Assembly (NCBI GenBank): GCA_027718005.1
Contig: JALLOP010000003.1
Span: forward strand, 1-35,545
DNA length: 35,545 nucleotides
Reading direction: 5' to 3'
Source: Patescibacteria group bacterium AH-259-L07
GTDB taxonomy: Bacteria > Patescibacteriota > Patescibacteriia > UBA2591 > UBA6264
Shown: one piece after another, positions 6,153 to 26,483 of the stretch
Layout: every line of letters begins with the position of its first letter
Numbering within the stretch: position 1 is the first letter of the stretch
Position numbers and translations under genes: made by a program
Notes under the pieces: model-generated
Database searches by the model: none
Seen by the model: the letters and a program-made list of their open reading frames with translations, nothing else
Told to the model about the DNA's origin: nothing

Positions 6153-6172
6153 AAAAATCCCTTATGGGATTT
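6153..6172 (-). terminator. Possible weak terminator after the LysM-CHAP gene
   Basis: aaatccc-ttat-gggattt, T-rich tail on the minus strand. Confidence 0.4.
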
Positions 6173-6203
6173 AGTGTAATGCTCACGACTGACGTCGCTT
6201 ACA

Positions 6204-7450: not shown

Positions 7451-10045
7451 ATGGCAGTTGGGGATAAGTATAACCATCAAAAAATTGAGCAAAAGTGGCA
7501 GAAAATATGGGAAGAGTTAGGGTTGTATAAAGCTCAGGATTTTAGCAAACGGCCAAAATCCTATATTTTAATTGAGTTCCCGTATCTTTCTGGAGATGGC
7601 TTACATGTAGGACATGGCAGGAGCTATAGCGCGCTCGATGCTATTGCGCGAAAACGGAGAATGCAAGGGTATAATGTGCTGTATCCCATAGGATGGGATG
7701 CATTTGGTTTGCCTACTGAAAATTATGCAATTAAAACCGGGATTCATCCCATTGAGATTACTAAGAAAAATGTTGCGTTATTCCGCCGCCAGCTCAAAAG
7801 CTTAGGGCTTTCATTTGATTGGTCTCGCGAGATTAATACTTCTGACCCAATATATTATAAATGGACGCAGTGGATTTTTTTAAAAATGTTCGAATGTGGC
7901 CTTGCCTATTTGGCAGAGATTCCTATTAATTGGTGTCCGGAATGCAAAATTGGGCTGGCTAATGAAGAAGTAATTGGTGGCAATTGTGAGCGATGCGGAA
8001 AAGAAGTAGAGCGGCGTCAACAAAAGCAATGGATGCTCAAAATTACTGCCTATGCTGATAGATTATTAAAAGATCTTGATGGGATTGATTATTTAGAAAA
8101 AATCAAAGCTCAGCAAGTACATTGGATTGGTCGATCAGAAGGGGTAACAGTAAAATTTAAAGTCAAAAGTTTCAGCCCAAGGCTGATCCGCCCCGGGCGG
8201 AAAAAGTCAAAGGTTGATGAAGTCGTTGAAGTTTTTACAACCAGGGCGGATACGTTGTTTGGGGTGACAGCGCTGGTGTTAGCACCAGAGCATAGGCTGA
8301 TCACTGATTGTTTATCATTGGTTGAGAATAGAAAAGAAGTTGAAGAATATATTAAGCAATCAAAGAAAAAATCAGAATTTGAAAGAACTGAATTAGAAAA
8401 AGAAAAAACAGGCGTACTGCTTAAAGGTATGTATGTCATTAATCCAGTCAATAATGAAAAAGTGCCTATTTGGATTGGCGATTATGTTGTTGCAACCTAC
8501 GGTGGTGGCGCGGTTATGGTGGTGCCTGCTCATGACAAACGAGATTATGCATTTGCAAAAAAATATGGTTTGGAAATTAGGGAAGTCGTAAAAGGCGGCG
8601 ATATTAGCAAAGAAGCATTTGTTGATTATGGGATATTAATAAATTCTGGGAAGTTTAGCGGGTTAGAGTCAAAGGAGGCCATTAAAAAAATTGGGAAATG
8701 GTTAGAACGGCATAAAAAAGGAGAACAAGAAGTTCAGTATAAGCTTCGTGATTGGGTGTTTTCTCGTCAGCATTATTGGGGGGAACCGATCCCGCTTGTT
8801 TTCTGCGAAAACTGCGCGGTCAAAATCAAAAATCAAAAATCAAAAATCAAAAATTTTAGTCAGGGAGAATTGTTAAATCCTGGATGGAAAGCTGTGCCGG
8901 AAGAGGATTTGCCACTTGAGCTGCCCTATGTGAAAAGCTATAAACCAACTGAAACAGGTGAGTCGCCGTTGGCACATATTAGTGAATGGGTTAATACCAC
9001 ATGTCCGAAATGCGGCTCAAAAGCAAAACGAGAAACCGATACCATGCCAAACTGGGCAGGTTCAAATTGGTATTTTCTCCGCTATATTGACCCCAAAAAT
9101 GATAAAGTCTTAGCAGATTATAAAAAACTGAAATATTGGCTGCCTGTTGATCTATACAACGGCGGTATGGAACATACTACGCTTCATCTGCTCTATTCCC
9201 GCTTTTGGCACAAATTCTTATATGACATCGGCGTTGTACCAACCTCAGAGCCATATAAAAGACGACGGTCTCATGGCATGGTATTAGCTGAAGACGGAAG
9301 AAAAATGAGTAAAAGTTTTGGCAATGTAATTAATACAGATGATATTGTTAATACTTTTGGCGCAGACGTGTTTCGTGTATATGAGATGTTTATGGGCCCG
9401 TTTGATCAAGCTATTGCATGGAATCCTAAGACAATATTGGGCGTAGATAGATTCCTGGCTAAAGTAAGAAATATTACCCTTGGTGTCATCCCGAGTTCGT
9501 CTACCTTGTCATCCCGAGCGAGCGGAGTTCCGATGAAATCGGAACAGGCGAGCGAGGGACGAGATGACAATTTAGAACAACTAATGCATCAAACAATCAA
9601 AAAGGTAAGCGAAGATCTGGATAATATGAAGTTCAATACCGCGGTTGCGGCGTTAATGGAGTACACAAATGAACTTATAACGCAATATGGAAAACTGAAA
9701 ACTGAATATATCGAAACGCTATTGTTGTTGTTGGCGCCGTTTGTACCGCATATAACTGAGGAGTTATGGCATCGAATCCATCCTAAATTATCAGAAAAAC
9801 GAAGTATATTTAAAGAACAATGGCCTGGATATAATCTAAGGTTAGCAAAGAGCAAAGAAATAGAGCTTGTTATTCAAATCAATGGTAAAGTACGTGATAA
9901 GACAAGGACAAATGCAGATATTTTAGAAAAACAGGCCGAGAAATTGGCATTAAAACAAAAAAAAATTCAAACGTATATAAAGGGAAAGAAAATTAAAAAG
10001 ATTATATTTATAAAAGGAAAGTTAATCAATCTAGTGATTGATTAA
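7451..10045 (+). CDS. leuS: Leucine--tRNA ligase with three repeat-derived in-frame inserts
   Basis: FPYLSGDGLHVGH (HIGH), GWDAFGLP, editing domain FTTRADTLFG / VPAHDKRD, KMSKS, C-terminal QINGKVR. Confidence 0.98.
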   Translation: MAVGDKYNHQKIEQKWQKIWEELGLYKAQDFSKRPKSYILIEFPYLSGDGLHVGHGRSYSALDAIARKRRMQGYNVLYPIGWDAFGLPTENYAIKTGIHPIEITKKNVALFRRQLKSLGLSFDWSREINTSDPIYYKWTQWIFLKMFECGLAYLAEIPINWCPECKIGLANEEVIGGNCERCGKEVERRQQKQWMLKITAYADRLLKDLDGIDYLEKIKAQQVHWIGRSEGVTVKFKVKSFSPRLIRPGRKKSKVDEVVEVFTTRADTLFGVTALVLAPEHRLITDCLSLVENRKEVEEYIKQSKKKSEFERTELEKEKTGVLLKGMYVINPVNNEKVPIWIGDYVVATYGGGAVMVVPAHDKRDYAFAKKYGLEIREVVKGGDISKEAFVDYGILINSGKFSGLESKEAIKKIGKWLERHKKGEQEVQYKLRDWVFSRQHYWGEPIPLVFCENCAVKIKNQKSKIKNFSQGELLNPGWKAVPEEDLPLELPYVKSYKPTETGESPLAHISEWVNTTCPKCGSKAKRETDTMPNWAGSNWYFLRYIDPKNDKVLADYKKLKYWLPVDLYNGGMEHTTLHLLYSRFWHKFLYDIGVVPTSEPYKRRRSHGMVLAEDGRKMSKSFGNVINTDDIVNTFGADVFRVYEMFMGPFDQAIAWNPKTILGVDRFLAKVRNITLGVIPSSSTLSSRASGVPMKSEQASEGRDDNLEQLMHQTIKKVSEDLDNMKFNTAVAALMEYTNELITQYGKLKTEYIETLLLLLAPFVPHITEELWHRIHPKLSEKRSIFKEQWPGYNLRLAKSKEIELVIQINGKVRDKTRTNADILEKQAEKLALKQKKIQTYIKGKKIKKIIFIKGKLINLVID
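8170..8202. repeat. 33-bp double-hairpin element in leuS
   Basis: tcagcc-caa-ggctga followed by tccgcc-ccg-ggcgga; reverse complement of 24526-24558 at 30/33. Confidence 0.9.
8820..8853 (+). repeat. Heptamer tract (TCAAAAA)n in leuS
   Basis: Encodes KIKNQKSKIKN. Confidence 0.85.
9484..9569. repeat. Composite TGTCATCCCGAG…GATGACA element in leuS with a nested hairpin
   Basis: tgtcatcccgag at 9484 and 9507, inner gttccgat-gaa-atcggaac at 9527-9545; complementary end gctcgggatgaca also at 1434-1446. Confidence 0.85.
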
Positions 10046-10067
10046 AAGTAAAAAGGGAAAACCAAAA

Positions 10068-10156
10068 ATGAAAAACCACAAGGAAAAGTTCAAAACCGAA
10101 TTGAAATCGCAAAGGTTCTTAGAGCAAATATTTTCACTGCAAAAGGACGAAGATAG
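10068..10156 (+). pseudogene. Internally deleted four-helix-bundle protein gene remnant
   Basis: MKNHKEKFKTEL joined out of frame to IEIAKVLRANIFTAKGRR*; flanked by A-rich and T-rich degenerate heptamer arms. Confidence 0.55.
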
Positions 10157-10219
10157 TTTTACGTTTTAAAATGTCGTTTTTACTTTTTCATTTTTAAATT
10201 TTAATTTAGTGAAGCGCTT

Positions 10220-11143
10220 ATGTCTTTATTACAACAGACAAAAAATTTGTGTAAACAATATCATATTACGCCCCTCAGACGTCGGGGACAAAATTTTTTA
10301 ATTAACCCTTTCATTGTAGAAAAAGTAATAGCAGCAGCAGGTTTAGATAAGAACGATATCGTAATAGAAGTTGGAGCAGGATTAGGGACATTAACAAAAC
10401 AAATAGCAAAACAGGTTAAAAAGGTAGTAGCGATAGAAATTGATAAAAAGCTGGTTCAAGTGTTAAGCGATGAATTATGTGATTACAAAAATGTAGAAAT
10501 AGTTCATGGCGACATACGAGATCCTACCAGCTACAAGCTACCAGCTACAAGCTATAAAATCGTGGCGAATTTGCCATTTAATATTACTGGTCTAACGTTA
10601 AGAAAATTTTTGGGGCGAAAGAATAGGCCGGAGGTAATGGTGGTGATTGTGCAAAAAGAAGTTGGCGAGCGAATTATAGCCCGTCCCTCAAAAAGGGGAC
10701 GGGATGACAAAAAAGGTAAAATGAATTTATTAGCTGTTTCAGTTCAATTTTATGCTCATCCTGAGATTATATTTTGTATAAGTAAAAATAATTTTTGGCC
10801 CAAGCCAAAGGTGGATTCAGTTATTTTAAAGATCGTTCCCTCGGGAGGGCTGACCTCCAAAAGAGGCCGGACTTTTGATGAGAAATTTTTTCAGATAGTG
10901 AAAGCTGGGTTTTTACATTCTCGGAAGTATTTACTTAACAATTTAGCAACCCTCCCCCTCCGACCCCCGACCTCCCGAGGAGGTCGGGGGTCTACAGCTT
11001 TAAAAAATAGTGCTATAATGATTAAATCATTAAAACAAGAATTGATGAAAATTTTTAACGAGATTGGGTTGAGTCCAAGAGTTAGGGCCCAGGAGTTGTC
11101 AGTGGAAAAGTGGGTCGCTTTAGTTAATAAATTATGCCAGTAG
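10220..11143 (+). CDS. rsmA: 16S rRNA adenine dimethyltransferase with four repeat-derived inserts
   Basis: GQNFL, IEVGAGLGTLT, AIEID, IVANLPFNIT, QKEVGERI, FWPKPKVDS, RAQELS. Confidence 0.96.
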   Translation: MSLLQQTKNLCKQYHITPLRRRGQNFLINPFIVEKVIAAAGLDKNDIVIEVGAGLGTLTKQIAKQVKKVVAIEIDKKLVQVLSDELCDYKNVEIVHGDIRDPTSYKLPATSYKIVANLPFNITGLTLRKFLGRKNRPEVMVVIVQKEVGERIIARPSKRGRDDKKGKMNLLAVSVQFYAHPEIIFCISKNNFWPKPKVDSVILKIVPSGGLTSKRGRTFDEKFFQIVKAGFLHSRKYLLNNLATLPLRPPTSRGGRGSTALKNSAIMIKSLKQELMKIFNEIGLSPRVRAQELSVEKWVALVNKLCQ

Positions 11144-11787: not shown

Positions 11788-11825
11788 AATAGAGGGCCAG
11801 TTTTGTGTTCGGTAATATTAATTTT

Positions 11826-14800
11826 ATGAGTTACTCAGGGTTTAAAAAATCAGTTTTAGTTAGTTTGATCACTATTTTGATGTTAGTTAGTTTATTTTTG
11901 CCTAAAACGGTTCATGCTCAATTTTTGATTTCTGATCCTGCAGGATTACTTCGAGATATTGGTGAGTTTGCGTGGAAACAGGCTAAGGATTTGGCCAAGG
12001 CAGCGTGGAAGCACGGCGGTGCGTTAGCATACAAAAATACTGTTAACTTTTATTTAGGCGAGATGGCTAAGCAAAGCGCTGAATGGGTGGCGACCGGCGG
12101 AAAAGGGAAAAAACCTTTATTTGCAAGGGATCCTGCTTTTTGGTCCAAATTAGGCGATCAAGCATTAGGAGAATTGATTGATCAGTATTCAAAAGGTTTT
12201 ACCGGAAGAAGCTTATGTGATCCATTTGATCCTACCATTCGTTTTAAAATGCTGGTTTCTATGGACCCAAAGTATCGGGAGATTAAGTTTGATGAGCAAT
12301 TGCGGTGTCCGGTGAGCAAAATCAAACAACGAATAAAAGAGGCAAGCAAAAAAAAGCTTTTTGAGTTTGATTTTGATTTGCGTGATGGACCAGTTGCTGG
12401 GTATAAAGCAAACATGCGGATTATTATAGCAGGAGATAGTGTTTTAAATAAAAATTATACCGGGATCACCAATGCGACTCATGTTTGTTATTCAGATCCA
12501 TCTCTTGATTTGAGCCAGTTTCCTCTTGGGTGTTTAGGGATTTTTGGATTAGGAACGGTAAATAAGGGCGTTGAGAAATTAATTGATATTACGTATAAAC
12601 TTGAAGATATGGGGAAGGAGCTTGAGCGGATTATTACTATATTAAAGCTTTTTGAAGCAGATCAAACCGAGATACGAGAAAAATTAGATGAATTAAATCA
12701 ACAACATATAAAGGCGCAGGAGGACATAATAGCTGCAGAAAACGCAGGCGTGCCAAGGGATCACCTGATACTGTTTTTTCTTAACAAAGATAAAGACAGG
12801 ATAAGGAAACAAATAGATAAGCTTGAGAAAATGCGTATAGATAAAGCCGAACAGATTGAGGCAGTTAATGACCTTATTAAATTACAACGAGATTTAGTAG
12901 ATAATATATGGGCATGGGAATTACTAGATAAAAATCCTGACACACCTGATATTCCTGGTGGACCTCATACGCTTTCTTTTTGGAGCCATTATACTCCTAT
13001 TTGTTCTGCTTTAGGAGATATGAGAGAATACATGAATAACGATGGATGTTTTGAGATTTCTGCTTTAGCAGTAGGTACAAATTTTGCTCCACTTACTATA
13101 CAAGAGGCATATACTAATTCACTTGCATATACCAAACGAGCTAATTCATACGTAAGACAATTAGTTGACTGGGCAAACACATTAGGAGATATGATTGAGG
13201 ACACAAAACTAAGTGATGATAAGGTACTGGAGACCCCAGATCTTGATCCATTAGAGGATATTAATCGTATGTATAACCCTGAAGGCAGTGATATTGGCGT
13301 ATTAGCAAGAATAGAATCTGATCTGTTGCGAAAGCAAACAACCGAAGTAGAAAAGTCTAAATTTTTCCAAACACTTCAGGGGCAAATGAATTCGTTGACA
13401 ACACAAATTTCTGATTTAGTAAAAACGCCATCGATTTATGTGAGTGAATCTGCGAGTCAAGCAGTAGAACAAGGCACTGCTGGGCCATTACAGTATACTG
13501 AAGTTGCGGCAGTTGACGCGATTGGTATTTTTACCAATACGTTGATTAATAAACTTTTAAAACAAATTTTTGAGACTGGGTTTAATCCACAACTTACCCC
13601 AGAGCTTGCAGAGAGAACAAAGCCATTTTTAGATGATGAAGGAGAGTCCGGCAGTCCATGGAGTCCATCGCGCCAGCAAAGCCGAGCCCTGTTTGCTGAT
13701 TTAGCTACGGCTCAATTAAAACGAGGACGAGAAATAACGATTTATGATGAATTTAACGTTTGTCCAAAAAATCCAGCGTACGCACTCCCCACCAATTGTT
13801 TATTAGAAGATAAAGACGGTAATACAATATTGCGAGCAGTAGAGGAAGGGTTGACCATAGCAGATGTTATAGAGAAAGGATTGGGCAGCGGCGCTTTAGT
13901 TGGCCGGCCAAATAATAATACCGGTCTTTTAAGTTTGACTAATATTAAAAAGTTACGGCGGGCACGTATTTTCCCTCTCGGGTTAGAAATTGCTGCTTCT
14001 AAAATTTATAATGGAGAACTTGGTGAAGATCCTGAATACACCCTAGAAGATATTGTTAACGAGTTTAATCAAACAAATTCGTTGGGCACATGTACCGATT
14101 TCAACGGAAGTTTTGAAAATGATGTTAATGACGATAATATCCCAGATGGATGGGTTCTGGGAGGCGATGTTTCACTTGAGACAAGCGAGGTACATTCAGG
14201 TTCTGTTGCATTGCGATTGAGCGGGAGTGGGTGGACCTCTAAGGTACGGCGGACCATCCCTATAAAATCAAATACGGTGTATACCATTTCAACATATGCA
14301 AAAGCAGAGAATAATAAACAACTATTTATTGGTCTATATTTTTATGATAAAGATGGCAATCAATTATTAGCATCTGGTTCAGCTGATGAGATTAATATTA
14401 GCGGTGGATTTGACTGGAGAAAAGGATGCGGCGCATCCTCATGTTATGCAACTGGCAGCATTAGTTTAACCAATACGTATGAGCAGTATGCGTATAGTTT
14501 TCGTTCCTTGCCTGATGCAGCCAGTGTAGAGCTTGTTCCCGAAGGTGCAGCACTTGCTGGTGCTCAAAGCGGAGATGTATTAATTGATGATGTTCAATTG
14601 ACGAGAGGGCAAACTGCTTCAGAAGAATATATGGAGCCATCGCCATTTTGTCATTTAGTTGACTCGAATTGGATATTTAAGAATTTAACCTATCAATGTG
14701 AAACTATTGGTTATTCAGCAATTCCTTTGCCCGGCAGTACTCAGCGTCAGGAAACGTGTGTTGATCTGCGTGATTGTATTAATGAAGATGAAAATGGACA

Positions 14801-17800
14801 ATGTGATACCTGGGGGTATTGTACGCGTGAAAAAAATACATGGCGTTTTAGTGGTAATTCTTGCGATGAGCAGTATGCAACATGCAAGACCTATATACGC
14901 TCAAAAGATAAAAAGCAGGTTTCGTATATAGAAAGAACAGTTGATTTTGGTGAGTGTACTGAAGGCAGTGTTGGGTGTAAATGGTACTGTACTGATTGGG
15001 ACGAAGATAATGGGCGTTGGCAATGTGCTGAGCCGGGAAAGGCACAATGTATAATAACTTCGCCTGCGCCAAGCGGCGGACAAAATTGTGTTTGTGATGG
15101 GACTAACGGGTGTTCTTTTGGTTTTTGTACTGTTAGAGAGGGCGAGAAATCTTGTTTAGTTGATAGTCCTGGCAATGCAATATTTTTTAATACTAATGTT
15201 GAGCAGTGTTTACCCGAAGTTGAAGGATGTAATGAATATATTAGAACCGTAGATGCGCCGCCAGCCCCAGATGGCTCAATAGATGATGAAGCATATAACA
15301 TTAATGATATAATTTATTTAGCAAGCGCTCCCACGTGTCAAGCAAAATATGTAGGATGTCAAATCTATACCCCTTCTGATCAAGGAGTTGCGATTCCGGG
15401 AATTGTAAATGTAGATGATCGATGCGAGGCTCAATGTGTTGGGTATGAAACATTTCAACAAATGCCAACTCATTTTGATACAAATACGAGCTGGGTTAAT
15501 TTTATTCCCGAGACCGCGAAGATGTGTTCGGTTCCTGGATGTGAGGAATTTACTAATTTAGATACGGTGACGCAAGGAGGGGAAGGATTAGAGTATTATG
15601 CATATCTGCGGCACTGCGCCAAGCTTCCTGATGAGGCAGCAAGCTGCGCTAATTTTTATACATGGATTGGATCTGAAACTACGGGATACCAATTAAAACG
15701 GTATCAATTAAAAGCTGATAATAATAACGAGCCAGAAAGAGTTTCTGCTTATAGTGAGGCAAAGAATGTATGGGACAAATGTGAGGATGCGACTGATTCT
15801 TTTTTTAATCCACATTGTAAAGAATTTTATAACGAATCAGGCATATCATCGTATCGTTTATTTAGAAATACGATTAGCTGTTCAGAGGAGTGCTCTCCTT
15901 ATCGGAGAACTATTGATGGGTCTTCGCGTATGGCAATTCCAAATCAGGGAGAAGTATGTAGTTTAGCTGATGTTGGATGCTATGAATATAAAGGACCAAC
16001 TGCTAATAATATACGCATATTATTTACTGATGATTTTGAATCAGGAATAGTTACGCTATGGCAGGGTGGAGAAATTTCCTCAGAATCAGTCAATCCTCCT
16101 CCCAGTTCATCAATGGAAGTATCAGGGGGCGAGGCTTCAAAGAAAGTGGCTAGTTTGGTCGCGCAAAATAAATCATATTTCCTCTCTTTCTGGGTTAAAG
16201 GAATTAATAGTATTAGCGCTCGGTTTTCTTCACTATCTTCTCAACCAAGATCCGGGCTTGATGCAAGTGAATGGGAAGAAGTACAATTAGGCCCGTTTTA
16301 TTTTGATACGGCGCCTCAAACTAATGAAACACTGTTCATTACCGCTGCTGATATTTTCTATATTGACAATATTACGCTCAAAGAAATATCTGATGATGTA
16401 TATGCAATTAAGGATTCATGGTTTACGCCGCAAATTTGTGATCAAGATTTTCAAGACAATGATATCCTTGGCGCAAAGCTTGGGTGCCGTCTTTATACTG
16501 ATAAAGATAATGATCCACATTATTTAAAATCATTTACCCGTTTATGTAAAGATTCTGATGTCGGGTGTGAAGCATTAATTGATACACAAAATTATTCAGC
16601 TTCACGTACGGGCGGCACGTTTAATGATGACAATACTGATTCAAAAGATAATGTAACGGTTCCTGCTGATGAAGTAGTGTATCGTGTTAATGATAAAGAG
16701 TATTTTTGTCAGGCAAAAGATAAGGGGTGTGAGAAAATGGGGCTGCCTCAATTAAGGCAAGATAATACGGTAGAGCGCTATGATACGGTATATATAAAAA
16801 ATGATCCTGAGCTTTATACAAAAGAGCCACTGCTTTGCCAGATTGAAGATTTAGGGTGTGAGGCATATGAGGGCGAGGGCGGTAATAGATATTTTAAAGA
16901 TCCAGAGATTACTAATAAGCTGTGTGAGTATCGAGAAAATGTTTTGATAGGAGGAGAGGCTAAAGTTGGCTGGTTTAAGACTGACACTGATCAGCCATGT
17001 TATGATAATCCTGTTTATTATCAACCGGATAGTCTTACCTATGGTATTCGTTCAGCTTATAAAGTATGTGATGCCGGGGATAATATTGGCAACGCTTGTT
17101 TGAGTGATGCTGATTGTCAAGGAGAGACCTGTGTCAAGATCTATGATGGTTGGGTCGGGATTTGTCCGCGCAGTCAGAATAGTTGTACCGCGTTTTTTGA
17201 TCCAGGCTGGGCTGGCCGCAAAGGTACTAATATACAACAAGAGGGGGCAGAAGTTAGGAAACTTGAAACTGGTTTTAGGGAGGGAGATTTCCATATTGCC
17301 GTTCAAGCGGCTGCACCTGCGTTAGTATCATCATCATCATCATTTACACCTCTCCCCCAATATTATTATTATCTTAACAACGAGAGATTGGATAGAGGAG
17401 CAGAAGAATGTCAAGCGCAAGTTTCATTAAAACGAGGTTGTATCCTTTTCAACGATCCAAATATTTCTTCTTCATCATACAGTAGTTTGGCCACTTACAT
17501 AAAATCAGCTCAATCAGATGTTCCTGATGGGCCTGTAGTCCCTGTTGATTGTGAACCAACTCCTAAACCTGATTGTACTGATCCATTAAATGCAGAGCGT
17601 GAGTATTGTTTGTATTGTGATCCATATGGGCAGGAAAGAAATGATACGAATGCCATAATAAAGGTGCGCAGAGATCGGACTTGCGGTGAATGGTTGAGCT
17701 GTACTAGTTTTCATTTAGAGACTTCAGGGGGAACAACCCGTCAAGTTTGTGATGAAGTAAGTCGTTGTGATGAACTTGTTGGATCGGGAGAAGCCTCACG

Positions 17801-20150
17801 ATGTGCTAATTTTGTCGGACCACCCCCAGAAGTATTAACTGAAGAAGTGTATAAGAGCCGCGATATATCATTTTATGGCATGGATTACTCTGGCTATTCT
17901 TTACACAATATGTATCCAGTCGAAGAGTTAGTCCTTGCCGAAACGCAAGGAATTTATCGATTAACCTATGAAGGTACTGCTTCTGGAGTTGATGGAAAAG
18001 GAAATACGATTGAAAAAGCGTGCCGAATTTATCCAGAAAAGGATTCACCATTTAAGAAGAGCATAGGCCCGGGCGGTAATAATTATTATCCTGATGTTAC
18101 TGTTTGTGAAGATGAGAACGATCCGCAATGCCAATGCTCATATACCAAAGCAGAATATAGCGGCGCTGTTAAATATTATAATTCAGACAGCTCTGTACCG
18201 ATTGGGATTTGTATTGGCGGCAATGATAATGGCAAGGCATGTGTAACCAACAATGATTGCGATAAACAGAATTGTTCATTTAAGACAAAGCAGACACGGG
18301 CTGTTGGCGTAAGCGGATATTGTTTAGAGCCTGATGTGAGTAAAGAGCCAAGTCCTAATAAGCTAGATATTAATGTCTGTATTACCTGGTGGCCAGGACA
18401 GAGTTTAGGTGATCCAAGCGTAAATCAGCAGTTTAGAAGCGCAGGGTATGAGGCATCAGAAAACAGACAGTGGTATTGTCTAAATGAAATATTTGGACCT
18501 ACTGAGATTGTTTTTCAAGATACTAAGGCAGGAGGGTGTAGTAATAATTTTAATACTGAATGCGAGCTTATAACTTATTCGTTAGCAAACCTTTCTCCAC
18601 CCAATCCCGAAGTTCAATCAAAAGAAGTGGAAAAAATTAAAGTTAAACTCATAGTAGATGATGGAGCCGCAGATCAAGGTAAAAATTGTAGTAATGCAGA
18701 CTGGAGAGGTGATGTTGAATTAACGAGTGCTAATAATTGGACGCGCGGAAAACACAATGATGATGGTACGACTTCTGAGAGTAATACGTGGGATACTAGT
18801 TGTGTTGATGTTGGTGAAACAGCCGTAAAAGTAAGAGCCTGTTTTGGCAATACGTGTAATAATGGAGATGAGGATTTTTTAAATAGATTTGAATTTATAT
18901 TGTCTGACAAGTCTGGCGGTAAAGCAACGGTTGGGGTTAAGGATATAAGGATTTATCTTAAAACAGGGTGTGAATATATTGTTAATGTTGCTACGGACGG
19001 GAATATAACTACTGCATGGACTGATCGTTTATGGAGTGAGAGTAAGTATTATAAGGATAATGATGGCGCAGTAGAGTGCCGTCCCTATGGCACAGCTGAC
19101 ATTAGTGGCTCACCAGAAGAATTAGTTTTGGTAGGAGACGGCGAAGCATGTACATTAGGCCAGGCCAATGTTGCTTATAGTGAAGCAGGTCTACAAGATT
19201 TATTTGCTCGAATTGGTCAGAAAAAACAGTTTCTTTATAAGGTTCAAGATCAAACATGTGTAGGAGCACTTCAGGGGATGTGTACACTGGATTCGAGTAT
19301 ACCGTGTCATGAGAATGCCGATTGTGTTGATGAGGGATTCTGTATTGGACCGTTTCCACCTGATTTTGACAGCGCGTGTTCAAATACAGGAGATCGGTGC
19401 AATTCTGATAGTGACTGTTCCCAAAATTACGGGACGTGTAGTGGAGGGAATATAGGACATTGTTCTGTTACTACCGGTATAGAATGTAGGGAGCCTAATC
19501 CTGAAGAACTTACTCCTGATTGTCCACAAGGTGACGCTCTCATGAAGTATGTTGATGTAAATTTAGAGGTTAAAAATTGGGATATTACCAGCACTGCAGT
19601 ATCTCGCGCACCTCAGGTGGCTTCATTAGATTGTAGAACTAAGAGCACTTGTCTTGGTATAAATAAGGTTACGATTGGGAATTCTGACAGCGGAAATATT
19701 GATCGAGAAGAATCATATACTGCTAATTTAAAATTTTATGCATGGGCCAATGAGAACCATATGCCTATCAGAAATATTGCTATTGATTGGTTAGGCAATG
19801 GCGCAGAAGATATTTCTTATAAGGTAATGGCTAAAAATCATAGGCCATTTTGCGACGACAGGCCTACTCCTGGCGGAGATAGTTTTGGCGGCAGTGAGAA
19901 AGCTTGTGTTGAAGAGTATTGGGAATTTACACGTATTTTTAAATGCGTTGGTGATACGAGTGAAGGGTGGGGGGCATTTAAGAATGAAAATAGTATATGT
20001 GCTACGGCTTGCTGTTTTAAACCAACAGTGTATGTCAAAGATAATTGGGATTGGTGTAATGGCGAAGTATATGCTGGAGCGGATAGTAGATGTGTTAGTA
20101 TAAGTGGCGCGGGGACTTCGTACGATGGTGTAGTTATTGTGAGACCATGA
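11826..20150 (+). CDS. Giant exported cysteine-rich protein (putative T4SS-associated adhesin)
   Basis: Signal peptide ending VHA|Q; about 110-115 Cys by manual count; repeated C-x5-GC; two CBM-like domains; ATG 11826 preferred over GTG 11805. Confidence 0.8.
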   Translation: MSYSGFKKSVLVSLITILMLVSLFLPKTVHAQFLISDPAGLLRDIGEFAWKQAKDLAKAAWKHGGALAYKNTVNFYLGEMAKQSAEWVATGGKGKKPLFARDPAFWSKLGDQALGELIDQYSKGFTGRSLCDPFDPTIRFKMLVSMDPKYREIKFDEQLRCPVSKIKQRIKEASKKKLFEFDFDLRDGPVAGYKANMRIIIAGDSVLNKNYTGITNATHVCYSDPSLDLSQFPLGCLGIFGLGTVNKGVEKLIDITYKLEDMGKELERIITILKLFEADQTEIREKLDELNQQHIKAQEDIIAAENAGVPRDHLILFFLNKDKDRIRKQIDKLEKMRIDKAEQIEAVNDLIKLQRDLVDNIWAWELLDKNPDTPDIPGGPHTLSFWSHYTPICSALGDMREYMNNDGCFEISALAVGTNFAPLTIQEAYTNSLAYTKRANSYVRQLVDWANTLGDMIEDTKLSDDKVLETPDLDPLEDINRMYNPEGSDIGVLARIESDLLRKQTTEVEKSKFFQTLQGQMNSLTTQISDLVKTPSIYVSESASQAVEQGTAGPLQYTEVAAVDAIGIFTNTLINKLLKQIFETGFNPQLTPELAERTKPFLDDEGESGSPWSPSRQQSRALFADLATAQLKRGREITIYDEFNVCPKNPAYALPTNCLLEDKDGNTILRAVEEGLTIADVIEKGLGSGALVGRPNNNTGLLSLTNIKKLRRARIFPLGLEIAASKIYNGELGEDPEYTLEDIVNEFNQTNSLGTCTDFNGSFENDVNDDNIPDGWVLGGDVSLETSEVHSGSVALRLSGSGWTSKVRRTIPIKSNTVYTISTYAKAENNKQLFIGLYFYDKDGNQLLASGSADEINISGGFDWRKGCGASSCYATGSISLTNTYEQYAYSFRSLPDAASVELVPEGAALAGAQSGDVLIDDVQLTRGQTASEEYMEPSPFCHLVDSNWIFKNLTYQCETIGYSAIPLPGSTQRQETCVDLRDCINEDENGQCDTWGYCTREKNTWRFSGNSCDEQYATCKTYIRSKDKKQVSYIERTVDFGECTEGSVGCKWYCTDWDEDNGRWQCAEPGKAQCIITSPAPSGGQNCVCDGTNGCSFGFCTVREGEKSCLVDSPGNAIFFNTNVEQCLPEVEGCNEYIRTVDAPPAPDGSIDDEAYNINDIIYLASAPTCQAKYVGCQIYTPSDQGVAIPGIVNVDDRCEAQCVGYETFQQMPTHFDTNTSWVNFIPETAKMCSVPGCEEFTNLDTVTQGGEGLEYYAYLRHCAKLPDEAASCANFYTWIGSETTGYQLKRYQLKADNNNEPERVSAYSEAKNVWDKCEDATDSFFNPHCKEFYNESGISSYRLFRNTISCSEECSPYRRTIDGSSRMAIPNQGEVCSLADVGCYEYKGPTANNIRILFTDDFESGIVTLWQGGEISSESVNPPPSSSMEVSGGEASKKVASLVAQNKSYFLSFWVKGINSISARFSSLSSQPRSGLDASEWEEVQLGPFYFDTAPQTNETLFITAADIFYIDNITLKEISDDVYAIKDSWFTPQICDQDFQDNDILGAKLGCRLYTDKDNDPHYLKSFTRLCKDSDVGCEALIDTQNYSASRTGGTFNDDNTDSKDNVTVPADEVVYRVNDKEYFCQAKDKGCEKMGLPQLRQDNTVERYDTVYIKNDPELYTKEPLLCQIEDLGCEAYEGEGGNRYFKDPEITNKLCEYRENVLIGGEAKVGWFKTDTDQPCYDNPVYYQPDSLTYGIRSAYKVCDAGDNIGNACLSDADCQGETCVKIYDGWVGICPRSQNSCTAFFDPGWAGRKGTNIQQEGAEVRKLETGFREGDFHIAVQAAAPALVSSSSSFTPLPQYYYYLNNERLDRGAEECQAQVSLKRGCILFNDPNISSSSYSSLATYIKSAQSDVPDGPVVPVDCEPTPKPDCTDPLNAEREYCLYCDPYGQERNDTNAIIKVRRDRTCGEWLSCTSFHLETSGGTTRQVCDEVSRCDELVGSGEASRCANFVGPPPEVLTEEVYKSRDISFYGMDYSGYSLHNMYPVEELVLAETQGIYRLTYEGTASGVDGKGNTIEKACRIYPEKDSPFKKSIGPGGNNYYPDVTVCEDENDPQCQCSYTKAEYSGAVKYYNSDSSVPIGICIGGNDNGKACVTNNDCDKQNCSFKTKQTRAVGVSGYCLEPDVSKEPSPNKLDINVCITWWPGQSLGDPSVNQQFRSAGYEASENRQWYCLNEIFGPTEIVFQDTKAGGCSNNFNTECELITYSLANLSPPNPEVQSKEVEKIKVKLIVDDGAADQGKNCSNADWRGDVELTSANNWTRGKHNDDGTTSESNTWDTSCVDVGETAVKVRACFGNTCNNGDEDFLNRFEFILSDKSGGKATVGVKDIRIYLKTGCEYIVNVATDGNITTAWTDRLWSESKYYKDNDGAVECRPYGTADISGSPEELVLVGDGEACTLGQANVAYSEAGLQDLFARIGQKKQFLYKVQDQTCVGALQGMCTLDSSIPCHENADCVDEGFCIGPFPPDFDSACSNTGDRCNSDSDCSQNYGTCSGGNIGHCSVTTGIECREPNPEELTPDCPQGDALMKYVDVNLEVKNWDITSTAVSRAPQVASLDCRTKSTCLGINKVTIGNSDSGNIDREESYTANLKFYAWANENHMPIRNIAIDWLGNGAEDISYKVMAKNHRPFCDDRPTPGGDSFGGSEKACVEEYWEFTRIFKCVGDTSEGWGAFKNENSICATACCFKPTVYVKDNWDWCNGEVYAGADSRCVSISGAGTSYDGVVIVRP

Positions 20151-20196
20151 TAAACGTAATGCGTAATGCGTAATTTATTTTGAGTTTTGAAAAATA

Positions 20197-23100
20197 ATGA
20201 GATTTAATTTATTTCAAAAATTTGGATTCCTCCCAAATCGGGGGTCGGACCCCCGATTTTGGGGATTGTGGAATGACACAAAAAAGTGGTTTGTTTTACT
20301 GCTGTTTTTTATTGTTATTGGTGGTGTTTTAATTCCTGAACAAGCACATGCTCAGCTTTTTGGTATATTTAAAGCAGTTAATGAGGGCGTAGCGTCTTTA
20401 TTCGCAAATATATTTCTTTTATTGGCAAATTTGGTTGGTCAGCTTTTATCAGTCGTGATTTATGTATTAGTCCAAGTGGTTCAATATAATGGTTTTATTA
20501 GTTCTCCGGCAGTTTCAAAAGGATGGATTATTATCCGCGACTTGTTTAACATGTTTTTTGTGGTGATTTTGCTGGTTATTGCGTTTTCTGCGGTGTTAAA
20601 AATAGAGAAGTATCCATATAAGCGCATGTTGTCAGCTTTTTTAATTGCGGCCGTATTGGTGAATTTTTCTAAATTAATTTCCGGGGTATTAATTGATTTT
20701 AGTCAAATTTTAATGTTGACGTTTGTGAATGCGTTTAAAGATGTGGCAGGGGGCAATTTTGTTGAAATGTTAGGACTTAAAGAAATAATGAGTTTGAGTG
20801 CGAATGTCGGCGCAGAAGTGATTACTCCATGGAAAACAGCGATTACCATTATGTTAGGTTTTATTATGGCGCTCGTTGCATTGGTGGTAATGATAGTGGT
20901 GACCCTTATATTTGTATTTCGCATTGTAGGACTTTGGTTTTTAGTGGTGTTGTCTCCCTTAGCATTTATGGCGATGGTTCTACCATCAACACAAAGTTAT
21001 GGCAGGCAGTGGTGGCAAAAATTTACCAATTATTTAATTGTTGGGCCGGTATTGGCATTTTTTATTTGGCTTTCATTAGCCGTTGTGCAGGAACCTGGCG
21101 GCAGACAACTTTTACCCGCAACTGAAAGCATCGGTGGTGAGTTTAGCGTAGGCGTGTCCCAAATTGGCCAGCCCCAATATATGCTTAATTTTATCATTGG
21201 TATTGCCATGCTGATCGCATCACTTATGGTGGCAAAACAATTAGGCGTTGCCGGCGCGGGTCTCGCAACCCAGGCAGTTGGCAAGCTTCAAGGAGTTGCT
21301 ACGGGTGCTATTAAACTGCCGTTTAAAGGCATGAAATTCGGCGCAAAAGAGATGGTCAAGACTGCAGAAGCAGGAATAGGGATTCCCTTGACAAAAGAAC
21401 GGTGGCAGCAAGCATGGCAGACACGGCGAACAAAAGTTAAGGAAAAAAGAGAGGAAAAGTGGGCCAGGAGAAGAATGCCAGGACTTCCTGCTGGATATGA
21501 GGAGTGGGGAGATGTAATGTCATTGAAAGGATTAGCTTCATTTCCAAAACATATTATACAGGGTTTTACTGGAAAAGCGCAAAGACTACGTAAGGACGCA
21601 GAAGGAAAAGAGGATGTATATGACAAGATTGGACAGGGAATAAAAGCAAAAAGTTCCCGAGAAGATCGTGATAAGCTAGATAAAGATATTGATGAGACAA
21701 CTCAGGATATAATTACGGCTAAAAGGGATAGCAAAGACTTTGGGGCCAGGGGCACAATGACGTTCTCTCATTTTGATGATTTTTCAAAAACCTTAATACA
21801 AGAGAGAGATCTCCTGCGTGAATCAAAAGAGGCTAAGGATCAAAAGCGAGCAAAGGAATTAGATGATTTAATTAAGAGTCTTAAGATTGGGAGGGGCAGG
21901 GCTAAAAAGGCAGGACAACGAGAAGTTGGAGCAAGTAATTTAATATCTGATAGAGATTTATATAAAAATGAAGCGTCGAAATGGTATACTAAACAAATGC
22001 AGACCAAAGAAAGCCACCTGAATAATTTAACTGAGAAAAAAAAGAATACTGAATTTAGCGAAGGCGATCAAAGCGAGATTAAGAAAAATTTACAAGTTCT
22101 ACAGGCAGAGATACAAGAATTTGATATTGATGATACTGCAAAAACAGGTCTTTTAGATAATGTTAATAGTGCATTAAAAAATGTGAGCGTTCCCTTAGAT
22201 GAGTTGACACCGGAGGCAAGAAAAGAAATGGCAGATGCTATGTGGGATGTACAGCAAAAAATACAACAATTAAGAGATGAGGAGGAAATAGGAATGCCAG
22301 AAGCAGAAACCCCGCTTGAGCAAATACAAGACAGTCATTTCCGATTATCAAAAGACGTAATCGCGGATGAAGATATGAAAAAATTAAAAGAAGATCAGGA
22401 GAAAAGGAGGCAGGAAATTCTTGGTTTACGCGCTCAAGCTGAGATGATTAGCCCGACTACTATGACTCCGGATCAGCGAGAAGCCATAAACCGAGGCACA
22501 TATCGAGAATATGAAAAATTGAAAGGAATAGATAGTGCCCCAGAGTTAATGACATTATACGCTCGTGCAGAAAAAGAAAAAAATGCCAATCTTGCCCGAG
22601 CAGTAATTACAAAATTAAATGATCAATTTGACATTAATGAGCTTTTAGAAGTATATGATTTAGAACAGGGTTGGAAAGGTATGGCTGACTTAGCAGATAG
22701 ATTGAAAGAAAACTTTGATATTCCTGAACAGCAAGCATATTCATTTATGAATGATATCGGGGCGACAAATAAACTAAGAGGCAATTTTAAGTTTGTAATG
22801 CCCTTTAAGAAAGATCAAAAAACTGGCAGATTAGAGAAAGTTACCCAGAAGCAGCACGAAGAGTTTGCATATATTGAATCGGGAAAGATTGCTGCTCAGC
22901 AATTGTGGGGTAGAGGAAGTTGGGGAGGAGTATTTGCCAAGCATAAAGATCCAGTCACCGGTCAGCGCGTGCCCATTTATGATGATCTGGTTGGAAAAAT
23001 GTTTAAAAGAGCAATGGGGACAATCGAGTATGAAGGAGTTCATAGAAATAGATTGCTGCCCGAGATTACCGCGGGTTTATCTCATCCCAATGTTATGGGA

Positions 23101-23244
23101 GGACTGAAAGGGCTGCGCCCAGGGCTTGCTCCGGCTGATAGACAAAGACTTGATAATATTCTCTCATGGCTCGAGGGCCAGCAAGGGAGTTATTGGGGAA
23201 GAGAAGGCGGCGAAAAGATAGAACCGGTAATGAGTAGCGAGTAA
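20197..23244 (+). CDS. VirB6/TrbL-like polytopic membrane protein with a long charged C-terminal tail
   Basis: Multiple TM helices in aa ~30-350, including RIVGLWFLVVLSPLAF…WWQKF; ~600 aa coiled-coil-like tail; context beside PrgI and VirB4. Confidence 0.75.
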   Translation: MRFNLFQKFGFLPNRGSDPRFWGLWNDTKKWFVLLLFFIVIGGVLIPEQAHAQLFGIFKAVNEGVASLFANIFLLLANLVGQLLSVVIYVLVQVVQYNGFISSPAVSKGWIIIRDLFNMFFVVILLVIAFSAVLKIEKYPYKRMLSAFLIAAVLVNFSKLISGVLIDFSQILMLTFVNAFKDVAGGNFVEMLGLKEIMSLSANVGAEVITPWKTAITIMLGFIMALVALVVMIVVTLIFVFRIVGLWFLVVLSPLAFMAMVLPSTQSYGRQWWQKFTNYLIVGPVLAFFIWLSLAVVQEPGGRQLLPATESIGGEFSVGVSQIGQPQYMLNFIIGIAMLIASLMVAKQLGVAGAGLATQAVGKLQGVATGAIKLPFKGMKFGAKEMVKTAEAGIGIPLTKERWQQAWQTRRTKVKEKREEKWARRRMPGLPAGYEEWGDVMSLKGLASFPKHIIQGFTGKAQRLRKDAEGKEDVYDKIGQGIKAKSSREDRDKLDKDIDETTQDIITAKRDSKDFGARGTMTFSHFDDFSKTLIQERDLLRESKEAKDQKRAKELDDLIKSLKIGRGRAKKAGQREVGASNLISDRDLYKNEASKWYTKQMQTKESHLNNLTEKKKNTEFSEGDQSEIKKNLQVLQAEIQEFDIDDTAKTGLLDNVNSALKNVSVPLDELTPEARKEMADAMWDVQQKIQQLRDEEEIGMPEAETPLEQIQDSHFRLSKDVIADEDMKKLKEDQEKRRQEILGLRAQAEMISPTTMTPDQREAINRGTYREYEKLKGIDSAPELMTLYARAEKEKNANLARAVITKLNDQFDINELLEVYDLEQGWKGMADLADRLKENFDIPEQQAYSFMNDIGATNKLRGNFKFVMPFKKDQKTGRLEKVTQKQHEEFAYIESGKIAAQQLWGRGSWGGVFAKHKDPVTGQRVPIYDDLVGKMFKRAMGTIEYEGVHRNRLLPEITAGLSHPNVMGGLKGLRPGLAPADRQRLDNILSWLEGQQGSYWGREGGEKIEPVMSSE

Positions 23245-23276
23245 AAGAAAATAAAAAATAGTGATTTACTAAAATT

Positions 23277-25202
23277 ATGGCAGAGAAACAATCCTCCTCT
23301 GCTAAACCTGTCCGTCCGGCAGGCGGAGCTTCGGAGGACAAAGAAAAAAAAATAGATTTTAAAGATAAAAAAGTAAGAAAGTCGCTCTATAAAGAGATTG
23401 GCCAGGGTTTTTATGATAATCCAACAAAGATTAAACAGTGGAATAAAAAACGAGCAGCCTTGGAGGAGTTTTTAAAAGAAAATAAGACGCTGCCTGAAGA
23501 TAATCCTTCTTTATATAAAGAATGTCAGGATTTATTAACTCGGCTTCAATGGTATTCATTTTTCTTTATTTCTTCAGACGATGCAGTTAATCTTTTTAAG
23601 TCGGGGATTAATATTGCGCTTTCGGAAAAGTCTTTTCCTCTAGAGACATATTTAAGTGTATTTTTGCTCAATATTCCTTCACTTACTTTACGAGATGAGT
23701 ATAAAGGAAAAATTCGCCAAGCAGTAGTAGAAAGTAAAAAAAGAATAACCTCAGGAGATATTAGAACAGTTGCTGATTGGCTTACATTGTATAATAGGGA
23801 ATTAGGAACAGGAGAAGTGGAAAAAGTAAGAGTGGCAGAATTTTTAAATAAAAATGAACATATTATTAAACTGTCTTCATCTGAAAAAACAAAGATCAAG
23901 AGGCTTTTTGAATTGTATGAAGAATTAAAAATTCCTGCTAACACTATTGAGGGACTTGAAGAAGAAGTATATGTGCTTAATGAACAAGGGGAACTAGAAT
24001 TTCATAAAAGAGGAAAGGTGGAAAATATAACAAGAGCAGTTGAGCGGGAAGAAGCAATGGAAGAAGCAAAAAAAAAGCCGTCCCCACCTCCACCAATTAA
24101 TTTAAACACCGCAATAAAGAATGCGATGGAGGGCGCAGGCCTTACATTACCTGACCAAGCATTACAAAAAAGATTTGAAAATATTGCTAAATCATATTTT
24201 GGTAATGTACGTACTGAAATTGAAACGCGCATTGTATTAAAACGGGATACAAAAGTTGGCGGTATGGGGCTTGATGACGAAACAGCAGATAAAGTTATAA
24301 ATATATTTAAAAAAGAAAAGCCGCAGGTCACTGTTGAAGAGCCAGTTAAAACGCCCGGCGTTAAACAGGCTATTTCTAAGCCAACGCCGGGCGTTAGCAA
24401 GAAACCGGATACAGGATTGGCTAAAGAATTAAGGCCGCCGGAGGAATTAATTGCTGCAGAGACAAGAATGCAGGCTGTGTCACGTAAACCAGAAGAAAAA
24501 CCTAAAAAAGCGCTTGAAGAAAAACTTCCGCCCAAGGCGGATCAGCCTCGGGCTGAAAAAGAACCGGAAATTAAACCAGAACCAAAATTAGAAGAAAAGC
24601 AAGCGCCAGTATCTGAACCTCGGCTTGTTCAAGAAAAAAAGGTTGAACCACCAAAAGAAGTAAAAATTGAGGAAAAAGTTGAACCCAAAAGAGCACCTCA
24701 GGCAGCGCCGAAAGCAGGGGCCCCTCCGCCTACTCCAGAGCCGCCCAAGGCAGAACCAGAAAAACCTCCATCTCCTGCGCCTATAAAACCAGTAACACCG
24801 CCAGTACCAGAAATAAGAAAACCAGCTGCCCAACCGCCAGAAGGAAAACCAATAGCCGAAGAAATAAGAGTTAAGCCGCGAGCACAGGGACCTGTTGATG
24901 AATTGCGGTATCTTACTTTAGGTGACTGGCGTAGATGGGGTTCAACTCAGGATGCGGCCCAAAAAATTCAAGATAAAATTAATTTATTAGCTGAAGAATC
25001 ATTAACTAAAAAAGCAGAAGCGGTAAAAGCATGGAAAGAGTCAGAAATTAGTAAATTGTATTTACAGCTTGGCGAGGAATCAATTAATGAGGGAAAATCA
25101 GTTGAAGAGGTTATTAAAGATCGCCAGCAGACTGGAAAACAAACTTTGACCAAAGAGGAGTTTGATGCAGTAGTAGGACTTAATCGAAAGCTACGCTTTT
25201 GA
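23277..25202 (+). CDS. Hypothetical cytoplasmic protein with a Pro/Glu/Lys-rich linker
   Basis: 641 aa ORF in the operon; helical ends separated by a PEK-rich region. Confidence 0.75.
   Translation: MAEKQSSSAKPVRPAGGASEDKEKKIDFKDKKVRKSLYKEIGQGFYDNPTKIKQWNKKRAALEEFLKENKTLPEDNPSLYKECQDLLTRLQWYSFFFISSDDAVNLFKSGINIALSEKSFPLETYLSVFLLNIPSLTLRDEYKGKIRQAVVESKKRITSGDIRTVADWLTLYNRELGTGEVEKVRVAEFLNKNEHIIKLSSSEKTKIKRLFELYEELKIPANTIEGLEEEVYVLNEQGELEFHKRGKVENITRAVEREEAMEEAKKKPSPPPPINLNTAIKNAMEGAGLTLPDQALQKRFENIAKSYFGNVRTEIETRIVLKRDTKVGGMGLDDETADKVINIFKKEKPQVTVEEPVKTPGVKQAISKPTPGVSKKPDTGLAKELRPPEELIAAETRMQAVSRKPEEKPKKALEEKLPPKADQPRAEKEPEIKPEPKLEEKQAPVSEPRLVQEKKVEPPKEVKIEEKVEPKRAPQAAPKAGAPPPTPEPPKAEPEKPPSPAPIKPVTPPVPEIRKPAAQPPEGKPIAEEIRVKPRAQGPVDELRYLTLGDWRRWGSTQDAAQKIQDKINLLAEESLTKKAEAVKAWKESEISKLYLQLGEESINEGKSVEEVIKDRQQTGKQTLTKEEFDAVVGLNRKLRF
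24526..24558. repeat. 33-bp double-hairpin element (inverse of the leuS copy)
   Basis: ttccgcccaaggcggatcagcctcgggctgaaa; encodes PPKADQPRAE. Confidence 0.9.
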
Positions 25203-26374: not shown

Positions 26375-26483
26375 AGAATGCAGAATGAAGAATGAAGAAT
26401 TGGGGTAGAGCTCATTCATTATTCTAAATTCATCATTCATCATTGAAAATAATTCATCATTCTAAATTCATAATTCATAATTG
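26370..26483. repeat. Inverted heptamer tracts (AATGAAG)n…(ATTCATC/A)n
   Basis: Left arm 26370-26401; right arm present twice (26414-26444, 26452-26483). Confidence 0.85.

Follow-up and report, generated by a model that had tools for sequence, protein, structure and literature searches.

Two sites in a 35,545-nt stretch of DNA from Patescibacteria group bacterium AH-259-L07 (contig JALLOP010000003.1; the whole stretch is referred to below as the window) carry near-identical 30-nt double hairpins, one within leuS and the other within an open reading frame (ORF) of 641 aa. Both sites are probably copies of a selfish insertion element, a double hairpin of 30 nt without genes, which is translated passively as part of its host proteins.

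The leuS copy, TCAGCCCAAGGCTGATCCGCCCCGGGCGGA, lies at 8172-8201 on the plus strand and reads TCAGCC-CAA-GGCTGA followed by TCCGCC-CCG-GGCGGA, and its near-twin on the minus strand of 24527-24556 reads TCAGCC-CGA-GGCTGA followed by TCCGCC-TTG-GGCGGA. An inverted-repeat search returned arms at 8170-8202 and 24526-24558 (33 nt, 91% complementary, 30/33), and the differences between the copies, CAA/CGA (one) and CCG/TTG (two), affect the loops alone, which confirms the reverse-complement match and the confinement of its differences to the 3-nt loops as claimed in an earlier note on this DNA. The repeat is real, but its unit is 30 nt (2 x 15), and the 33 nt given in that note merely include flanking T and A bases. 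The opposite orientation of the two copies, also put forward there, is a weak notion because each unit is itself palindromic; the real contrast lies in the order of the units (A-B versus B-A) and in the reading frame (offset 1 versus offset 2). The aaagtcaaa repeats reported beside the leuS copy are present at 8159-8167 and 8203-8211, and they extend to 13 nt with 12/13 matches.

A degenerate double-hairpin pattern matches twice in the window and gives 0 matches in 100 dinucleotide shuffles, and each copy is predicted to fold into two adjacent 6-bp hairpins (RNA, -17.9 kcal/mol; DNA, -11.7 kcal/mol). Rfam at gathering score yields 0 matches across the whole window, with neither copy covered. 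The two copies, their parts and their hosts are as follows.

7451-10045 (+): leuS, 864 aa, Pfam tRNA-synt_1 and LeuRS editing domain; element read at offset 1
8159-8171 (+): 5' arm AAAGTCAAAAGTT, direct-repeat partner of 8203-8215; also flanks copies in unrelated contexts in other genomes
8172-8186 (+): unit A of the leuS copy, TCAGCC-CAA-GGCTGA, 6-bp stem and 3-nt loop, from pattern and fold
8187-8201 (+): unit B of the leuS copy, TCCGCC-CCG-GGCGGA; atypical loop, as second-unit loops normally start with T
8203-8215 (+): 3' arm AAAGTCAAAGGTT, offset by 44 nt from the 5' arm and matching it at 12/13 positions
23277-25202 (+): host ORF of the second copy, 641 aa, without Pfam family; element read at offset 2
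24527-24541 (+): unit B of the second copy, TCCGCC-CAA-GGCGGA
24542-24556 (+): unit A of the second copy, TCAGCC-TCG-GGCTGA
24740-24754 (+): possible decayed single unit, GCCGCC-CAA-GGCAGA, which differs from unit B at two positions and reads PPKAE within the host ORF of the second copy; uncertain

The leuS copy is read as FSPRLIRPGR from 8171-8200, in the β-hairpin that opens the CP1 editing domain, and the second copy as PPKADQPRAE from 24528-24557, inside a Pro/Lys/Glu-rich low-complexity linker. The gene leuS and both peptides had been named correctly in the earlier note, but its intervals lie 1-2 nt wide of the codons. No RNA run is listed as containing the stretch.

A dispersed family of paired 15-nt units

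The window pair consists of members of a dispersed family and is not a private match. The source genome (G000; its relatives are numbered from G001 onward) comprises 1.41 Mb in 148 contigs with 37.8% GC and a completeness of 75.6%, and its gene content and its small-genome relatives resemble the candidate phyla radiation (CPR). The search in this and related genomes that the earlier note had proposed, made in 41 genomes of the same order (G000 included) with frames and flanks tabulated, recovered a family whose building block is the 15-nt unit TC[C/A/G]GCC-NNN-GGC[G/T/C]GA. Doubles, defined as two adjacent units with at most one mismatch to TCNGCCNNNGGCNGA x2, are present in 17 of the 41 genomes and range from 0 to 18 per genome (18 in G036, 12 in G013, 8 in G022 and 5 in G037), with 24 of the 41 at 0; the reversed pattern used as the control gives 0 in every one of them. 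G000 itself carries nine doubles, in addition to singles, one triple and decayed copies.

A scan across phyla for the exact B-B pattern, with one genome per species, gave at least 126 loci, spread over many lineages of the CPR and over further phyla. The CPR lineages among the matches listed are Kaiser-, Portnoy-, Lipton-, Doudna-, Moran-, Campbell-, Giovannoni-, Falkow- and Saccharibacteria and others, and metagenome-assembled genomes (MAGs) from outside the CPR among these matches are labelled Omnitrophota, Kiritimatiellae, Ignavibacteriota, Planctomycetales, Lentisphaerae, Chloroflexota and 'Gammaproteobacteria'. In a groundwater metagenome, the summed contig depth reaches ~650-6400 over 8152-8214 alone, compared with <=45 in most neighbouring bins, and therefore many different groundwater contigs carry the element. 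The literature searched, supplements not covered, holds no description of such elements in CPR/Patescibacteria.

Additional repeats were seen in G000, in which contigs are denoted by C. A truncated double at C1:24218-24247 lies ~15 nt 3' of tRNA-Arg(CCG), and a single unit at C77:3925-3939 falls within a stretch that matches the L10 ribosomal protein leader at 48 bits, against a gathering score of 44. A separate dispersed repeat (GCCCCGTAG...GGGG), ...cgatgcctGCCCCGTAG-tgaacttgttcta-ctatcGGGGttcgaacc, occurs in C4, C28, C48, C71, C100, C122 and C128 (e.g. C4:857, C100:1138 and C122:45) and has no Rfam match at E<=0.01; its tip is swapped for a TCCGCC-CAA-GGCGGA unit at C100:1148 and C122:55. 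Another GC-rich palindrome, CCTGCCTGCCGGCAGGCAGG, recurs on at least seven contigs (C48, C58, C88, C94:3636, C122:5165, C127:23012 and C146), with some copies inside long ORFs.

Anatomy and covariation of the hairpins

Flanks, loops and palindromes were analysed in the 124 exact-pattern copies among the matches listed. The copies are preceded by TTT (56/85/61%) and followed by AAA (60/78/60%); first-unit loops end in A and second-unit loops start with T (consensus NNA / TNN), and 24 of the 124 are perfect 30-nt palindromes. The loop and flank pattern, together with the perfect palindromes, therefore indicates that one asymmetric unit has been duplicated in inverted orientation to give the pair. 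Both window copies fit the family pattern with 0 mismatches, and positions 3/13 are A-T and C-G in each. The second copy has the flanks act|aaa and the loops CAA / TCG, the loops being typical, and the leuS copy has the flanks gtt|aaa and the loops CAA / CCG, of which the second is off the consensus.

The small hairpins are covarying units. Stem positions 3 and 13 form Watson-Crick pairs in 128 of 138 units (C-G 104, A-T 16, G-C 8), compared with 88.1 expected from the marginals, and in the 24 doubles with differing units the 3/13 pairing holds within units in 42/48 cases and across units in 5/48. Genome-specific 'dialects' are also observed: G022 and G039 use TCGGCC..GGCCGA and TCCGCC..GGCGGA, and the eight copies of G022 are nearly identical, mostly including the loops, in a burst-like manner. 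The covariation and these dialects suggest that the hairpin is needed for a copying step. At single loci the stems decay, as in the G014 copy at the glycosyltransferase site described below and in several imperfect G000 copies, and because of this decay the hairpin looks to be needed for spread rather than kept at each site.

The earlier note had taken the two copies as direct evidence that the DNA structure, not the peptide, is the conserved unit. A nucleic-acid unit is borne out by the 3/13 covariation and the turnover across the family and by copies in all three frames and between genes, but two near-identical copies are no direct evidence of selection on structure because a recent common origin could explain their likeness; the peptide matters as well, as the reading frames below indicate.

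Insertion and turnover at orthologous sites

Insertion and presence/absence polymorphism are seen when orthologous sites are compared. The WIGRS-FTTR interval of LeuS spans 18-22 residues in most relatives and 32 in G000, the relatives being 10-14 residues shorter, and T. thermophilus LeuS (1H3N) has a 14-residue gap at the β-hairpin opening the editing domain. A contig from a sediment metagenome, found in three runs of one sample, aligns to 7900-8298 with ~91.6% identity and is shorter by exactly 30 nt at 8169-8201. In some relatives the same leuS loop holds other hairpin inserts: G029 has a single TCCGCC-AGCC-GGCGGA, and the inserts of G002 and G006 are GC-rich and hairpin-like.

The leuS loops of three relatives that lack the core, L014 (G040), L038 (G031) and L017 (G036), contain 13-15-nt tandem direct repeats (or 4 x TTTCAGA) at the equivalent of ~8150-8220, in two different frames. 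These tandem repeats may be footprints or may mark a pre-existing fragile site.

The clearest series comes from a second site, in a glycosyltransferase gene (G000 C94:17408-18655). This gene is present in 29 relatives, most of which have nothing inserted at the position DYF|NK-IKADL. A perfect double is present in G000, G004 and G022, and the site is empty in G039, a congener of G022, with a difference of exactly 30 nt and no duplication. Within one genus (g4), the copy is perfect in G004, decayed in G014 and missing in G018; additionally, G006 has a single unit and G001 a 36-nt variant. Unrelated GC-rich inserts with hairpins of their own, 69 nt in L156 (G013) and 63 nt in L148 (G007), were observed at the same DYF|NK site, which seems to be a general hot spot.

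Further hosts in G000 are UvrA, PBP2 and a P/E-rich surface protein, and hosts in the relatives include PpsA and an HI0933-like dehydrogenase, each with two copies. The insertions are placed in loops and linkers, and those in LeuS, UvrA, PBP2, the glycosyltransferase and PpsA are in frame within unrelated housekeeping genes. Orthologues of the 641-aa ORF that hosts the second window copy do not align through the low-complexity linker.

Reading frames of the intragenic copies

The element is found in all three frames and between genes. The frame census in the order took in 69 of 71 sites (two dropped) and gave the following counts.

G036 doubles, 18: offset 0, 0; offset 1, 0; offset 2, 0; outside a long ORF, 18
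Doubles of the other relatives, 43: offset 0, 28; offset 1, 2; offset 2, 0; outside a long ORF, 13
G000 doubles, 8: offset 0, 2; offset 1, 1; offset 2, 3; outside a long ORF, 2

Among the cross-phylum copies listed, 53 of 124 lie in long ORFs, 47 at offset 0, two at offset 1 and four at offset 2. Offset 0 gives SAxGGSAxGG whichever strand is read. A TT|AA target is impossible at offset 1 in an ORF because TAA would be included, and such junctions number 4423 at offset 0 and 3268 at offset 2 in the long ORFs of G000. The excess at offset 0 (47/51, binomial 8e-8) goes beyond the constraint set by the target because these junction counts allow less bias. The A-type unit, TCAGCC..GGCTGA, carries TGA at offset 0, and therefore the A-containing copies of the window are at offsets 1 and 2, the rarer frames. 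Thus, the encoded peptide does filter which intragenic copies survive.

Arms shared by copies in unrelated contexts

The flanks of the leuS copy recur elsewhere. In a Moranbacteria MAG, a B-B copy in a NifS/IscS-like gene has the same flanks (AAAGTCAAAAGTy[30]AAAAGTCAAA) in the same frame, and the rest is unalignable. A search of 400 further genomes of the phylum with a 53-nt pattern (<=3 mismatches) returned three more copies: G129 has two, both in spacers, and G048 has one, located upstream of fusA. The arms AAAGTCAAAAGT...AAAAAGTCAAA are common to all five of these copies, in which at least 23 of the 28 near-flank bases are alike and the far flanks are at chance level. Other arm-sharing subfamilies are present in G036 and in one Kiritimatiellae MAG.

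Three candidate explanations of the arms were considered: co-conversion of short arms at insertion, which may apply by analogy with the proposal made for yeast GC42 (PMC4478555), a composite subfamily, and later homogenisation of the flanks. The arms of the 'empty' leuS allele are similar and non-identical (AAAATTAAAAATC / AAAAGCCAAAGG, reconstructed from difference tables). Their substitutions (5/27 versus a background of ~8%) were rejected as proof of co-conversion and are, given this reconstruction, suggestive only.

Candidate mobilisers and points against an insertion element

Several observations weigh against a selfish insertion element and are gathered here. No mobilising enzyme was found among Y1_Tnp, DUF559 and the genes between paired copies, other transposase families not being tested. 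The RAYT/IS200-type Y1_Tnp (PF01797) was rejected as the mobiliser, as it occurs in 12 of 17 element-bearing and 14 of 24 element-free genomes and is absent from the near-complete G022 (98%) and G037 (99%), which carry eight and five copies. The DUF559 nuclease, present in eight of 41 genomes (4/17 versus 4/24) and in none of G000, G022, G036 and G037, was likewise rejected. A phage vector fared no better: only two exact matches were found in 2.9 million viral contigs, one of them apparently in a 212-codon frame, and no vector is therefore evident. Additionally, the same 24 fixed bases across phyla would be unusual for a parasite that needs lineage-specific enzymes.

The flanking repeats are also at odds with a simple transposon model. 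Direct repeats of at least 9 nt flank 14 of 194 copies and are present in 15 of 1131 control windows taken locally; the distance between the repeats is not constant (42-54 nt). At leuS, the arms are offset by 44 nt, which is not a multiple of 3, and the net insertion is 30 nt; because of this mismatch in spacing and the recurrence of the same arms in other genes and in spacers of other genomes, aaagtcaaa was rejected as a simple target-site duplication. The relative that supplies the 'empty' leuS allele is ~92% identical, and the allele was deduced from the gap and difference tables, not from its own sequence. Finally, neither a transposition intermediate nor a filled/empty polymorphism inside one population was seen.

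A cargo gene bracketed by two copies was considered as well and rejected, as the pairs in G022 and G037 lie inside PpsA and the HI0933-like dehydrogenase.

The element also falls outside the known classes for which it was checked. As in MITEs (miniature transposable elements with inverted repeats), the ends are terminal inverted repeats, the pair being an inverted duplication of one unit. A fixed-length target-site duplication is missing (filled G022 versus empty G039: +30 nt, no duplication; the repeats are variable), and no cognate transposase or autonomous element with the same ends was found in the families checked (Y1_Tnp and DUF559). Repetitive extragenic palindromes (REPs) mobilised by a REP-associated tyrosine transposase (RAYT) would be extragenic and of high copy number, and here six of the eight G000 doubles in the frame census and 30 of 43 doubles in the relatives other than G036 are inside long ORFs, without co-occurrence of the RAYT (Y1_Tnp). 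An intrinsic terminator does not fit a T-run 5' and an A-run 3' on both strands and many copies in mid-gene. The in-frame insertion into unrelated housekeeping genes is shared with the Rickettsia palindromic elements (RPEs), repeats of ~100-150 bp that encode a conserved peptide; the present element has 30 nt, frame-dependent peptides and a CPR-like host.

Proposed course and alternative explanations

A selfish, passively translated insertion element would behave as follows. Its usual form is an inverted pair of 15-nt units, with 10 codons in 30 nt, placed where T-rich sequence gives way to A-rich sequence, and some subfamilies have ~12-14-nt arms. It would be gained, and sometimes lost, as a clean 30-nt block, so that the reading frame would never be shifted. 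Copies landing in a tolerant surface loop or a disordered linker would be transcribed and translated, and their persistence or decay would depend on the peptide encoded. The Ser/Ala/Gly loop of offset 0, which would be harmless, dominates, and an A-type unit inside a gene would survive only at offsets 1 and 2, as in the leuS copy and the copy of the second ORF. The spread appears to be of a copy-and-paste kind, and the element would seem to be selfish rather than useful.

A bolder version, which we consider doubtful, holds that the 30-nt palindrome is a self-sufficient mobile DNA without a transposase of its own. Its insertion within and between phyla would be templated, hairpin-driven and arm-assisted, with ~12-14-nt A/T-rich arms co-converted at T|A junctions during replication or after the uptake of environmental DNA. 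If this were true, few genetic elements that spread horizontally would be smaller, and essential proteins of ultra-small bacteria would be steadily supplied by it with loops of ten residues and Pro-rich linker material.

A functional nucleic-acid site is an unlikely source of the family. Under this explanation, the hairpins would be kept at each locus for a function, for example as a DNA or mRNA site that is bound or processed, as a translation pause or as a recombination signal, and their likeness would stem from a shared recognising factor. The stem covariation and the dialects would also be expected from a site that co-evolves with its binding factor, the same fixed bases recur across phyla, the junction of the units is nearly always GATC, and one unit lies inside the L10-leader match and one copy ~15 nt 3' of tRNA-Arg. 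However, the copies are scattered without positional logic over loops of LeuS, UvrA, PBP2, PpsA and the glycosyltransferase and over spacers; some congeners have them and others do not, they decay at their sites, their numbers are small and patchy (0 in 24/41 relatives), and the essential orthologues work without them.

A local mutational origin, in which template switching or fold-back synthesis would create each hairpin anew at a fragile A/T-rich site with no transfer between sites, is distinctly unlikely. The different GC-rich hairpin inserts that different lineages carry in the same LeuS and glycosyltransferase loops, and the enrichment of variable-length flanking direct repeats, are consistent with such a local origin, whereas the same 24 fixed bases at hundreds of sites in many phyla, identical 30-mers including the loops within G022, and shared 12-14-nt arms in unrelated contexts are not expected from it.

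A selected flexible linker (SAxGGSAxGG and relatives), of which the DNA palindrome would be a by-product of codon choice, is very improbable and is already contradicted by the intergenic and other-frame copies. The strong excess of the Ser/Ala/Gly frame among intragenic copies and the placement of insertions in loops and linkers would suit such a protein motif, but the window copies are read in both other frames as unrelated peptides, and 71 of the 124 cross-phylum copies among the matches listed and 18 of 18 G036 copies lie outside long ORFs. Moreover, codon choice gives neither perfect 6-bp complementarity nor a 3/13 covariation that costs a change from Gly to Arg (G022).

A chance match or assembly artefact can hardly be entertained: G000 is a fragmented MAG (148 contigs, 75.6% complete) and no sequencing run was found to hold this genome (shares 0.03-0.07), but the shuffles gave 0 matches in 100, both host ORFs are open through the element, and it is present in many independent assemblies and studies, with many groundwater contigs that match the element alone.

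If the family is indeed a selfish insertion element, a parasite of 30 bases, well below classical MITEs or RPEs in size, would be remodelling essential CPR enzymes such as LeuS, UvrA, PBP2 and PpsA. The element would offer natural experiments on the tolerance of protein loops to random ten-residue inserts, on the frame filtering of selfish DNA, in which a stop codon in one unit type sets the surviving frames, and on the spread of a hairpin without an obvious enzyme. The inserts can introduce errors into the alignment of orthologues, phylogenetic markers based on indels and the calling of genes in MAGs, and the genome-specific dialects could serve as strain markers.

Other features of the stretch

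Between and beyond the two copies, the following features were observed.

11805-20150 (+): giant ORF, 2781 aa, with a CBM_4_9 match only; adjoins a 1015-aa ORF without family
26443-30375 (+): TraG/VirB4-like P-loop ATPase ORF, 1310 aa, split by an intein that includes a homing-endonuclease domain of the LAGLIDADG type (Pfam Intein_splicing, LAGLIDADG_3); its neighbours are PrgI-like and type IV secretion system (T4SS)-pilin-like ORFs, a conjugation/T4SS-like cluster
30375-30394 and 30499-30518: perfect 20-nt inverted repeat around a 104-nt spacer after the ATPase gene
26414-26486 and 34154-34188: repeated 35-nt A/T-rich block (ATTCATTATTCTAAATTCAT...) upstream of two ORF starts
32558, 33372 and 34190: 21-nt repeat at the starts of three successive small genes, two of them HEPN-domain ORFs

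Comparison with known systems

REPs lie outside genes, are present in hundreds per genome and come with a RAYT gene that has REPs on its flanks. The present element is like REPs, bacterial interspersed mosaic elements (BIMEs) and REP doublets forming hairpins (REPINs) with their RAYT (Y1 HUH) in being a short, GC-rich imperfect palindrome, often in inverted pairs and with genome-specific variants. Unlike in REPs, many copies are intragenic, only 1-18 occur per genome, and the presence of Y1_Tnp does not track the element.

The cyanobacterial small dispersed repeat SDR5, as described in excerpts of PMC4390886 citing Elhai et al. 2008, is inserted between the third and fourth bases of HIP1. Both are very small mobile repeats with precise insertion at a defined short target, whereas the host group, the sequence and the target (the HIP1 palindrome versus a TT|AA junction here) differ in a comparison made by description. 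The mitochondrial hairpin and double-hairpin elements of fungi and sponges, according to the portion of PMC2800124 at hand, invade repeatedly, mostly spacers and sometimes rRNA and protein genes, and are of unknown function. The repeated invasion and the occasional genic copies are similar, but those repeats are organellar and longer, and in-frame translation is no dominant feature in that portion.

In its behaviour, the element is like the RPEs or the GC clusters of yeast mitochondria. RPEs are ~150 bp, restricted to Rickettsia, and each family encodes a conserved peptide, as stated in the excerpted sections of the review PMC10969869. Like these, the element is palindromic, translated in frame in unrelated housekeeping genes with protein function apparently compatible, and found in reduced genomes; in contrast, it is one fifth the size and built of modular 15-nt units, is readable in all frames and occurs in many phyla, the two having been compared by description, not sequence.

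In the part of PMC4478555 available, the yeast GC cluster GC42 has 42 nt, an AG target and 89 positions in intergenic regions and introns, with none reported in exons. That system is mitochondrial and eukaryotic, whereas the element here is 30 nt long, bacterial, spread across phyla and very often translated in frame, and the two have no sequence in common. The parallels drawn from the same excerpts are nevertheless several: both appear as short, GC-rich, gene-less palindromes in AT-rich genomes, present sporadically among close relatives and often gained and lost; the loops are more variable than the stems, and smaller units (GC18) merge into larger ones; and flanking 'co-conversion' changes are tied to presence.

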